Source of the DNA: Escherichia coli
Lineage (GTDB): Bacteria > Pseudomonadota > Gammaproteobacteria > Enterobacterales > Enterobacteriaceae
Assembly (NCBI RefSeq): GCF_003334765.1
Contig: NZ_QOWT01000001.1
Strand: one strand, 5' to 3'
Length of the DNA: 64,000 nt
In this document: positions 20,693-34,814 of the stretch, piece by piece
How positions within the stretch are numbered: the stretch's first letter is position 1
Layout of the letters: each line of letters begins with the position of its first letter
Made by a program: the position numbers and the translations under genes
The notes under the pieces: model-generated
What the model was told of the DNA's origin: nothing
Databases searched by the model: none
What the model saw: only the letters and a program-made list of their open reading frames with translations

Positions 20693-20712
20693 TGCTGGTT
20701 ATCTATCCAGTG
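20693..20712. promoter_or_regulatory. LexA (SOS) box upstream of cho
   Basis: Reverse complement CACTGGATAGATAACCAGCA is a near-palindromic CTG-N10-CAG LexA-type operator, 14 nt upstream of the cho start. Confidence 0.65.
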
Positions 20713-20761: not shown

Positions 20762-20872
20762 CACCGTCTGACGTGCTACGCCTGTCAGGCCTATTCGACT
20801 CCTGCAATGTATTGAATTTGCATAGTTTTATAGGTCGAATAAGGCGTTCACGCCGCATCCGGCGTGAACAAA
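20762..20872. repeat. Composite REP/BIME-type repeat (two REP-like palindromes flanking a conserved spacer)
   Basis: Contains gcctgtcaggcctat and taggtcgaataaggcgttcacgccgcatccggcgtgaaca; the spacer cctgcaatgtattgaatttgcatagtttta recurs nearly identically at 27949-27978. Confidence 0.7.
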
Positions 20873-25693: not shown

Positions 25694-27046
25694 ATGAGCC
25701 AGAAATTAAAAGTCGTCACTATTGGTGGCGGGAGCAGCTATACCCCGGAGTTACTGGAAGGATTTATTAAGCGTTATCACGAATTGCCGGTCAGCGAATT
25801 ATGGCTGGTGGATGTCGAAGGTGGTAAAGCGAAACTGGATATTATTTTCGATCTCTGCCAACGGATGATTGATAACGCTGGCGTCCCGATGAAGCTTTAT
25901 AAAACGCTGGATCGCCGCGAAGCATTGAAAGATGCTGATTTCGTTACTACCCAACTGCGCGTTGGCCAATTACCGGCGCGTGAACTGGATGAACGTATTC
26001 CATTAAGTCATGGTTATCTTGGTCAGGAAACCAACGGCGCGGGCGGTTTGTTTAAAGGTCTGCGTACCATTCCGGTGATTTTTGACATCGTAAAAGATGT
26101 CGAAGAACTTTGTCCGAATGCATGGGTGATTAACTTCACTAACCCGGCGGGAATAGTCACTGAAGCCGTTTATCGTCATACCGGATTTAAACGCTTTATC
26201 GGCGTGTGTAATATTCCGATCGGCATGAAGATGTTTATTCGCGATGTTCTGATGCTGAAAGACAGCGATGATTTATCTATCGATTTGTTCGGCCTCAACC
26301 ATATGGTGTTCATTAAGGATGTGCTGGTAAATGGCAAGTCGCGCTTTGCCGAATTGCTTGATGGTGTGGCGTCAGGGCAGTTAAAAGCGTCCTCTGTAAA
26401 AAATATTTTCGATCTGCCATTTAGTGAGGGCTTAATTCGTTCGTTGAATCTGCTGCCATGTTCTTATCTGCTGTATTACTTCAAGCAGAAAGAGATGCTG
26501 GCTATTGAAATGGGCGAATACTACAAAGGCGGCGCACGAGCGCAGGTAGTACAGAAAGTCGAGAAACAACTTTTTGAGCTGTATAAAAATCCTGAGCTGA
26601 AAGTTAAGCCGAAAGAACTGGAACAGCGCGGTGGGGCTTATTACTCTGATGCAGCATGCGAAGTGATCAACGCTATCTACAACGACAAGCAAGCAGAACA
26701 TTACGTTAATATCCCGCATCATGGGCAGATTGATAATATTCCGGCAGACTGGGCAGTAGAAATGACCTGTAAGCTGGGGCGCGATGGCGCGACGCCACAT
26801 CCGCGCATTACGCATTTCGATGATAAAGTAATGGGGCTGATTCACACCATTAAAGGCTTCGAGATTGCTGCCAGTAACGCCGCACTTAGCGGAGAATTTA
26901 ACGATGTGTTACTGGCGCTAAACCTTAGTCCGTTGGTGCATTCCGATCGCGATGCTGAGCTGCTGGCACGCGAGATGATTCTGGCGCACGAGAAATGGCT
27001 GCCAAACTTTGCCGACTGCATCGCAGAGCTTAAAAAAGCACATTAA
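25694..27046 (+). CDS. chbF: Family 4 glycosyl hydrolase, NAD/Mn-dependent 6-phospho-beta-glucosidase
   Basis: 450 aa; N-terminal Rossmann motif KVVTIGGGSSYTPEL. Confidence 0.95.
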   Translation: MSQKLKVVTIGGGSSYTPELLEGFIKRYHELPVSELWLVDVEGGKAKLDIIFDLCQRMIDNAGVPMKLYKTLDRREALKDADFVTTQLRVGQLPARELDERIPLSHGYLGQETNGAGGLFKGLRTIPVIFDIVKDVEELCPNAWVINFTNPAGIVTEAVYRHTGFKRFIGVCNIPIGMKMFIRDVLMLKDSDDLSIDLFGLNHMVFIKDVLVNGKSRFAELLDGVASGQLKASSVKNIFDLPFSEGLIRSLNLLPCSYLLYYFKQKEMLAIEMGEYYKGGARAQVVQKVEKQLFELYKNPELKVKPKELEQRGGAYYSDAACEVINAIYNDKQAEHYVNIPHHGQIDNIPADWAVEMTCKLGRDGATPHPRITHFDDKVMGLIHTIKGFEIAASNAALSGEFNDVLLALNLSPLVHSDRDAELLAREMILAHEKWLPNFADCIAELKKAH

Positions 27047-27814: not shown

Positions 27815-28015
27815 ATGTTTGCCAGATGCGGCGTGAACCTTGCATCCGGCGATTAATTCCTACAAAGGCGGCGTAACTGCGCCGCTTGAGACTGCTGACA
27901 AACGCAAAACTGCCTGATGCGCTTCGCTTATCAGGCCTACGTGTTTCCTGCAATATATTGAATTTGCACAGTTTTGTAGGCCGGATAAGGCGTTCACGCC
28001 GCATCCGGCATAAAC
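27815..28015. repeat. Cluster of REP/BIME-type palindromic repeats between chbG and katE
   Basis: Three REP-like units (gccagatgcggcgtgaaccttgcatccggc; tgcctgatgcgcttcgcttatcaggcctac; gtaggccggataaggcgttcacgccgcatccggca) plus the conserved spacer shared with 20795-20830. Confidence 0.75.
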
Positions 28016-33392: not shown

Positions 33393-33983
33393 TTAGTATT
33401 CAACCTGATGCTTAATAAGCCGATGAAACTGGATCTGCAAGGTATTGATCATTTGCGATGACCAACGAACAGCGCTGTTCTCGGGTAATGAATGGGGCAT
33501 CCATACCGACCAGACAAATAATGCCATGCAGATAAAACGTTCCAGTTGGTTGCCCTTTTGGGGAACCAGGATAGGCAAGCGGAAACGCCAGCGGCATGGC
33601 CAGAGCAGGGGAACACCGGCGGGTGTCAGCATATCGGCAAGTATGTGGCTCAAATAACCCAGCACCATTCCTTGTAGCGCATCAGCCGGAATGAACCAGC
33701 CTTCCGGAACCTTAAGGTAAAAGGTTGCCAGCAGCGCAAATACCGCCAGCAGACTGTGGGTAAAACCACGATGCCCAAAAGCGCGGGCGATCGGTTTTGA
33801 TATCCATTTTAATCGCTGCCCAAGAAACGACTTTGGGTGATCGATGTCCGGTAACAAACACGTCAGGATTGCGGAAGGGACAATATGCCACCAGTCACCC
33901 TGTGCCAGCACGGGCGTCAGCTCGGCATTTTTGGCAAATACCGCACAAGCAATAGAAAAGAGAAGGTGACCTTCCGCCGTCAT
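33393..33983 (-). CDS. ydjM: LexA-regulated inner-membrane protein YdjM
   Basis: 196 aa from MTAEGHLLFSIACAVFA; two LexA boxes immediately upstream. Confidence 0.85.
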   Translation of the reverse strand: MTAEGHLLFSIACAVFAKNAELTPVLAQGDWWHIVPSAILTCLLPDIDHPKSFLGQRLKWISKPIARAFGHRGFTHSLLAVFALLATFYLKVPEGWFIPADALQGMVLGYLSHILADMLTPAGVPLLWPCRWRFRLPILVPQKGNQLERFICMALFVWSVWMPHSLPENSAVRWSSQMINTLQIQFHRLIKHQVEY

Positions 33984-33997
33984 GATAAAACTCACTA

Positions 33998-34035
33998 AAC
34001 TGTCGATACGTACAGTATAGGATTTTTATACAGTG
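33998..34035. promoter_or_regulatory. Tandem LexA (SOS) boxes upstream of ydjM
   Basis: AACTGTCGATACGTACAGTA (CTGT-N8-ACAG) at 33998-34017 and CACTGTATAAAAATCCTATA (reverse strand) at 34016-34035. Confidence 0.8.
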
Positions 34036-34145
34036 CACGGAAGTGGTGACGGTGTAACTCTTTCTCTTAAATTGACGATTAATCCGTCAGTTGAATGCAA
34101 TTTCAGATAAAGAACCAGGGGCAGCGAGATCACTGCCCCTGGTCA

Positions 34146-34814
34146 TTAACCGAGAAGGTCTTTTGCGGTGAGTTCTGTCAGCGATGAGAGTTTGACGTCT
34201 GCTAATACAAAACGTGGATCATTTTGCGCTTCTGGCGCAGGAACGACGATGGAACGCATGCGGGCTGCTTTAGAGGCGATCATGCCATTTACCGAATCTT
34301 CCAGCGCTACGCAGGTCAGAGGGTCAACGCCCAGTTTTGCTGCGCAGTCGAGATATACTTGCGGATGCGGCTTGCTGTAAGGCAGTTTTTCGGCCGAGGC
34401 GAGGGCATCGAAACTGTCGCGTAAGTCAAACATGGTCAACACTTTTTCCAGCATATGTAGTGGTGACGCGGAGGCCAGTCCCACCAATAAACCTTGTTCT
34501 TTGCATAACGCAACGGCTTCGCGCACGCCTGGTAATAATGGACGTGTCTCTTCAACCAGTGAAATGGCACGGGCAATAACCCGTTCTACTACTTCCTGAC
34601 GGCTTGGCCCATTCCACGGTTGCCGGGCGTACCAAAGATCGACCACCATATCGATGCGTAAACCTAAGGTGTCCGGCAGCTCGTTACGACGGGAGATATC
34701 CACCCCCAGGCTTGCCATCACATCCAGTTCGGCTCGATCCCATAAAGGTTCTGAGTCGATAAGTAATCCATCCATATCAAAAATTGCAGCAAGAATCTGA
34801 CGCGGGGTTGACAT
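34146..34814 (-). CDS. hxpB: HAD-family sugar-phosphate phosphatase (hexitol/2-deoxyglucose-6-phosphate phosphatase)
   Basis: 222 aa (yniC); HAD motif I AAIFDMDGLLIDSE. Confidence 0.9.
   Translation of the reverse strand: MSTPRQILAAIFDMDGLLIDSEPLWDRAELDVMASLGVDISRRNELPDTLGLRIDMVVDLWYARQPWNGPSRQEVVERVIARAISLVEETRPLLPGVREAVALCKEQGLLVGLASASPLHMLEKVLTMFDLRDSFDALASAEKLPYSKPHPQVYLDCAAKLGVDPLTCVALEDSVNGMIASKAARMRSIVVPAPEAQNDPRFVLADVKLSSLTELTAKDLLG

Follow-up and report, generated by a model that had tools for sequence, protein, structure and literature searches.

The window, by which we mean the whole stretch of 64,000 nucleotides of Escherichia coli DNA analysed here, comprises a region of the chromosome with the gene order hxpB (yniC)-ydjM-tcyP (ydjN), in which all three genes lie on the minus strand (Table 1). 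Many E. coli genomes match its sequence at 100% identity, and a 1.6-kb query around the LexA boxes upstream of ydjM found matches at 95-100% identity in 5424 of 5426 complete E. coli genomes. In E. coli EEC_W5 (NZ_CM130020.1, 1601583-1604249), the query matched in two pieces across 2.67 kb, and the match overlies an annotated IS903B-family transposase, indicating an IS insertion in the hxpB-ydjM neighbourhood.

The ATG of ydjM (33983-33981) agrees with the RefSeq start, and an ATG was found at the equivalent position in all 80 of the 80 orthologous ydjM loci. A GTG at 33995, abutting the nearest LexA box, was considered as an alternative start codon and rejected, since 33994-33997 varies between species; it is further disfavoured by the conservation of the ATG at 33983 and the codons that follow and by the RefSeq annotation of the ATG. 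The product showed significant full-length profile matches to the YdjM family, namely to Pfam PF04307 'YdjM inner membrane protein' (E = 2.4e-35, residues 1-158) and to the NCBIfam equivalog NF008651 'metal-dependent hydrolase' (374 bits with a cut-off of 216), and is thus a putative membrane metal-dependent hydrolase, as judged from these profiles. The original prediction had named the gene ydjM and described its product as a membrane protein of unknown function; RefSeq and both profiles confirmed the identity of the gene, and the protein is still referred to as a 'poorly characterized inner membrane protein' (bioRxiv 10.1101/2024.02.22.581605). Deletion of ydjM did not significantly affect survival after TisB expression (bioRxiv 10.1101/2024.02.22.581605).

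A strong terminator-like hairpin follows hxpB (Table 1). This feature suggests that hxpB is separated from the ydjM transcription unit and that ydjM is transcribed alone in E. coli. Elsewhere in the window, Rfam matches were obtained for the Phe leader (pheM attenuator; 44918-45042, plus strand) and the STnc540 sRNA (48883-49041, plus strand), both of which are expected for this region of E. coli. The ES036 (CssrF) sRNA family matched twice on the minus strand, at 20787-20829 (42.9 bits) and at 27933-27975 (55.5 bits), the former match lying in the cho-nadE intergenic region near the LexA box of cho.

Table 1. Features of the ydjM region and the cho LexA box, with positions in the 64-kb window
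Feature	Position	Strand	Description
ydjM CDS	33393-33983	-	196 aa; YdjM-family inner-membrane protein; RefSeq annotation metal-dependent hydrolase
LexA box 1 (promoter-proximal, strong)	33998-34017	-	reads TACTGTACGTATCGACAGTT along the gene strand; contains the perfect core CTGT-N8-ACAG (34000-34015)
LexA box 2 (distal, weak)	34016-34035	-	CACTGTATAAAAATCCTATA on the gene strand; one consensus half-site only
Candidate -10 hexamer TATACT	34014-34019	-	straddles the box junction; with C at 34020, CTATACT
Near-invariant block	34038-34058	-	GTTACACCGTCACC(n)CTTCCG; next to box 2 on its upstream side; most columns at least 97% conserved in 66 distinct sequences
Alternative upstream promoter (predicted)	34078-34106	-	CTGAAA (34106-34101), 17-nt spacer, ATTAAT (34083-34078)
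Terminator-like hairpin (intrinsic type)	34113-34144	-	14-pair stem with 9 GC pairs, then CTTTATCT; directly 3' of the hxpB (yniC) stop codon
Known cho (ydjQ) SOS box, best in the window	20693-20712	-	CACTGGATAGATAACCAGCA; HI 5.7; 14 nt upstream of the cho start; in the training set

Two LexA boxes upstream of ydjM

The gammaproteobacterial LexA (SOS) box is a 20-bp site (TACTGTATATATATACAGTA) with a 16-bp palindromic core, CTGT-N8-ACAG. On the gene strand, the sequence 5' of the ydjM start codon reads ...CCGTG CACTGTATAAAAATCCTATACTGTACGTATCGACAGTT TAGTGAGTTTTATC ATG, and it contains two sites of this kind. Box 1 carries the core in full and is the sole perfect match to CTGT-N8-ACAG in the 64-kb window, whereas box 2 agrees with the core in part, its distal half (CTGT, 34033-34030) being canonical and its proximal half (CCTA) non-canonical. 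Taken as 20-mers, the two boxes have 2 nt in common (34016-34017) and are 18 bp apart from centre to centre; a gap of 14 nt (33984-33997) separates box 1 from the ATG, and both boxes fall within 14-52 nt 5' of it. Direct reading of the sequence thus bore out the coordinates and geometry proposed for the two boxes, as well as the description of box 1 as canonical. Both boxes are present where they had been placed, but box 2 is not a full CTGT-N8-ACAG site. Its assignment to the opposite strand has no meaning, since box 1 is palindromic and each box obtains its better score on the gene (minus) strand.

The boxes were scored by the heterology index (HI, Berg-von Hippel) using a matrix of 18 E. 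coli LexA boxes taken from Table 4 of PMC3009722, none of which is from ydjM. Box 1 showed an HI of 10.22 on the minus strand and 10.68 on the plus strand, and box 2 showed 9.75 and 13.2, respectively. The minus-strand values of both boxes are below the threshold of about 15 that is used relative to known sites (PMC11002266). The matrix scan that the original prediction had suggested as a check thus returned both boxes as LexA sites with an independent training set. The published HI for E. coli ydjM is 9.0, box 1 being listed by its HI value only (PMC11228462). Among the 127,962 oriented 20-mers of the window, the two boxes occupied ranks 3 and 4; as sites, box 2 and then box 1 were the second and third best in 64 kb behind the known cho box, and they were the best LexA-like sites outside the training set.

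Two other LexA-like sites were noted in the window. The site at 26577-26596 on the plus strand (AGCTGTATAAAAATCCTGAG, HI 12.9) lies inside celF/chbF and has a 15-nt run, CTGTATAAAAATCCT, identical to ydjM box 2; this likeness is probably a coincidence among A/T-rich LexA-like matches. The site at 56853-56872 on the plus strand (TATTTTTTATGAAAACAGCA, HI 10.85) has one half-site only and is located in a divergent intergenic region between a 277-aa ORF on the minus strand and a 792-aa ORF on the plus strand. About 0.43 sites with an HI of 11 or less are expected by chance per window.

As a bare pattern, CTGT-N8-ACAG would occur by chance 0.68 times per window, and it was present at least once in 47 of 100 shuffled sequences, so the pattern alone is not beyond chance. 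The significance of the boxes rests on their full 20-mer scores and on their pairing. In 300 dinucleotide-preserving shuffles, sites with an HI of 10.3 or less occurred at 0.23 per 64 kb, and no pair of boxes 15-25 bp apart was obtained even when an HI of up to 12.5 was allowed. By chance, one window would hold about 1e-5 such pairs and a 4.6-Mb genome about 7e-4.

Conservation of the boxes and the adjoining DNA

Of 5423 E. coli genomes, 5370 show an identity of at least 99% over the 101 bp that hold the boxes. A cross-species scan with one genome per species yielded 80 ydjM loci from about 25 genera of Enterobacteriaceae, including Escherichia, Citrobacter, Salmonella, Enterobacter, Lelliottia, Leclercia, Kosakonia, Raoultella, Franconibacter, Atlantibacter, Phytobacter, Trabulsiella, and Cedecea. 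The boxes were compared in 81 sequences (66 of them distinct) anchored on the LexA-like site nearest the ATG. Box 1 was present in 81 of 81 sequences with HI values of 5.3-11.7 (median, 7.7), and its distance from the ATG was usually 14 nt. Its ACAG half-site and the CTG of the other half were invariant, and the fourth base of the CTGT half varied between T and G only; the change from CTGT to CTGG is also found in genuine LexA boxes such as those of ruvA and cho. A box 2 with an HI of 12.5 or less was located exactly 18 bp upstream of box 1 in 78 of the 81 sequences, the exceptions, all of which kept box 1, being loci L012 and L026 (Citrobacter amalonaticus S646 and Intestinirhabdus alba) and locus L060, which has a 1-nt insertion. 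The CTGTAT half of box 2 was conserved in 63-64 of the 66 distinct sequences, and in Escherichia box 2 is the site with the lowest HI. Conservation in orthologous promoters, as looked for in a LexA box, thus extends over about 25 genera. These results confirmed that the tandem LexA sites of ydjM are real and strongly conserved, far beyond chance.

An additional sequence of about 0.9-1 kb separates hxpB from ydjM in Citrobacter, Enterobacter, Franconibacter, Kosakonia, Raoultella, and others. This sequence, at about positions 1000-1900 of loci L007, L027, L050, L063, L081, and others, looks like an additional gene; it ends about 90 bp before the ydjM ATG, and Escherichia and Salmonella lack it. 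Where this extra gene intervenes between hxpB and ydjM, the operator remains with ydjM.

A consensus sigma-70 scan of 33800-34300 returned no full promoter, and no -35 hexamer in this interval reached 4 of 6 matches. The -35 hexamers that could be picked out by eye were poor, both for TATACT (TTCCGT, 2 of 6) and for TATAAA. The sequence CCTATACTG at the box junction (34021-34013) was invariant in 66 of 66 distinct orthologous sequences, and the TATACT within it appears to be a good -10 candidate, in which case the boxes would span about -28 to +10. The block directly upstream of box 2 was also nearly invariant across about 25 genera, and conservation ended upstream of about 34068. The block has no good match to a promoter hexamer, and comparison by eye with the CpxR, PhoB, sigma-E, sigma-32, and sigma-54 consensus sequences gave no convincing fit. 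It may be -35/upstream promoter DNA or the site of another factor.

These features raise the possibility, which we regard as rather unlikely, that the operator and the core promoter are co-encoded, with CCTATACTG serving as the -10 element (CTATACT) and the block either as a -35/upstream element of unusual form or as the target of a second regulator. Such co-encoding would account for the fixed, non-LexA form of the proximal half of box 2 and for the absence of drift in the 18-bp register. The form of the -10 element with C at -13 is favoured by sigma-S; as for a published link between ydjM and RpoS, none was found beyond co-mention in general papers. ydjM has been reported to be induced by the membrane toxin TisB (bioRxiv 10.1101/2024.02.22.581605), and a second regulator acting at the block, if there is one, would fit this induction.

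SOS regulation of ydjM

The ydjM operator is already known from the same organism (E. coli K-12 b1728) with the same nucleotides, and ydjM has been a member of the SOS regulon since 2000, its two boxes having entered both literature and databases. According to PMC4951493, tandem LexA-binding sites at E. coli ydjM were reported experimentally by Fernandez de Henestrosa et al. (2000; Mol Microbiol 35:1560). The ydjM site given at -52 in PMC4576408 is the same 20-mer as box 2 (CACTGTATAAAAATCCTATA), and box 2 is missing from RegPrecise (PMC4576408). ydjM also appears in the standard, or classical, list of SOS genes (PMC6590174). In RNA-seq of E. coli, ydjM was induced 2.5-fold by AZT, and its level in the wild type was 8.6-fold above that in lexA3, showing dependence on LexA cleavage (PMC11228462); after ciprofloxacin, it was up by as much as log2 2.6 (PMC11002266). 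The induction is modest as compared to that of single-box genes such as sulA and umuD (PMC11228462). The ydjM gene of Salmonella carries a pair of boxes, at distances of 14 and 32 bp from its ATG, with HI values of 9.12 and 12.85, and it was induced 2.11-fold by nalidixic acid; a gfp fusion gave no detectable fluorescence and was too dim to analyse (PMC8072944).

The tandem LexA operators proposed for ydjM are thus supported by the matrix scores, the fixed 18-bp register, the binding cited in PMC4951493, and the LexA-dependent induction (PMC11228462). As to the 'tight SOS repression' suggested in the original prediction, repression as part of the SOS response stands, and its tightness is plausible in view of the dim Salmonella gfp fusion, but the fold change does not demonstrate tightness. 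Being already known, the operator carries little weight as a discovery; it is useful as a positive control, that is, as a real tandem operator recognised from raw sequence. The contribution of the present analysis is the footprint of this operator across genera.

Based on these results, the region upstream of ydjM is almost certainly its known SOS operator, composed of two adjoining LexA sites and exerting ordinary SOS repression. Its action would be as described below. In the undamaged cell, one LexA dimer would bind to the palindromic box 1 and a second to the adjoining weaker box 2, which has one consensus half-site. Both dimers together would occupy about 38 bp (34035-33998), up to a point 14 nt from the start codon, and, if TATACT is the -10 element, bound LexA would keep RNA polymerase off the promoter. 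Upon DNA damage, RecA on single-stranded DNA would stimulate the self-cleavage of LexA; the sites would then be emptied and ydjM transcribed. By analogy with the colicin operators, box 1 may help to fill box 2 cooperatively, which fits the pairing of a strong with a weak site and the fixed register.

In this scheme we infer that LexA occludes the promoter itself rather than acting as a downstream roadblock, because the predicted upstream promoter (Table 1) is not conserved outside Escherichia and 34058-34013 is nearly invariant. An unlikely alternative is that the boxes form a transcriptional roadblock downstream of a sigma-70 promoter, CTGAAA-17-ATTAAT. A genomic-SELEX peak of the RpoD holoenzyme was located in the yniC-ydjM spacer by Shimada et al. 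(2014), who proposed the CTGAAA/ATTAAT hexamers (PMC3946193); this published promoter prediction lies about 45-90 bp upstream of the boxes and would speak against occlusion by making them a downstream block. The lack of a canonical -35 hexamer beside the boxes points in the same direction. The hexamers are, however, a prediction within a low-resolution SELEX peak, and the stretch that holds them lacks conservation beyond Escherichia, most genera having an upstream gene that ends about 90 bp before the ATG; by contrast, the DNA from 34058 to 34013 is retained almost unchanged. Besides, the Salmonella SOS genes that have known start sites and show LexA-dependent bistability have boxes overlapping the start site (PMC8072944). 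Promoter occlusion is, thus, the favoured reading.

A further alternative, which we consider distinctly improbable, is that box 1 is the only working operator and that box 2 has been conserved as promoter DNA, for example as TATAAA at 34030-34025 or as a spacer and -10 element around CCTATACT, its likeness to a LexA site being a by-product. What counts against a tandem operator is that box 2 is without a proximal half-site, with CCTA in place of ACAG or CCAG, and that three species have lost box 2 and kept box 1: the box 2 score is lost, and box 1 retained, in L012, L026, and L060. Moreover, what is invariant in box 2 is CCTATA, the very half that does not resemble a LexA site, and it overlaps the candidate -10 hexamer. 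The absence of box 2 from RegPrecise (PMC4576408) and the borderline HI of 12.85 for the Salmonella box 2 (PMC8072944) are likewise consistent with a single working box. On the other hand, PMC4951493 cites an experimental demonstration of tandem LexA binding at ydjM. The CTGTAT half of box 2, conserved at the exact 18-bp register, would sit in the promoter spacer if TATACT is the -10 element, and spacer sequence is usually unconstrained. The HI of 9.75 obtained for box 2 with the independent matrix is also better than several bona fide boxes would allow by chance. The idea that both boxes are chance matches with no regulatory role, to which the expected frequency of the bare pattern might lend itself, is next to negligible, being refuted by the rarity of such pairs in shuffled sequence, the conservation across genera, and the published binding and expression data.

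Comparison with other LexA operators

The ydjM operator is like the colicin-type tandem operators (e.g. colicin E1/E2) in that a palindromic box 1 is joined to a half-canonical box 2, the ends of which share 2 nt. The colicin boxes overlap more, their 16-mer cores sharing 1 nt, and the spacing between their centres is about 15 bp, as compared to 18 bp in ydjM. Cooperative LexA binding has been demonstrated for the colicin operators. Tandem arrangements have been likened to the strong-plus-weak overlapping boxes of colicin genes (PMC4951493).

The multi-box promoters of lexA and recN resemble that of ydjM in having several LexA boxes close to the start codon; their products have known SOS functions, unlike the product of ydjM. 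The two boxes of lexA are about 21 bp apart, corresponding to two helical turns. In Salmonella recN, the boxes are located 8, 26, and 48 bp from the ATG, so that the first pair is 18 bp apart, as in ydjM (PMC8072944). A gene encoding a YdjM domain is also found under a LexA box in the SAOUHSC_02424 operon of Staphylococcus aureus (PMC11442139). The S. aureus box differs from the ydjM operator in that it is a single box of the Firmicutes type, CGAAAATATGTTCG, and serves a three-gene operon. The occurrence of a LexA-controlled YdjM gene in this distant phylum suggests that the link between YdjM and the SOS response is old or recurrent.
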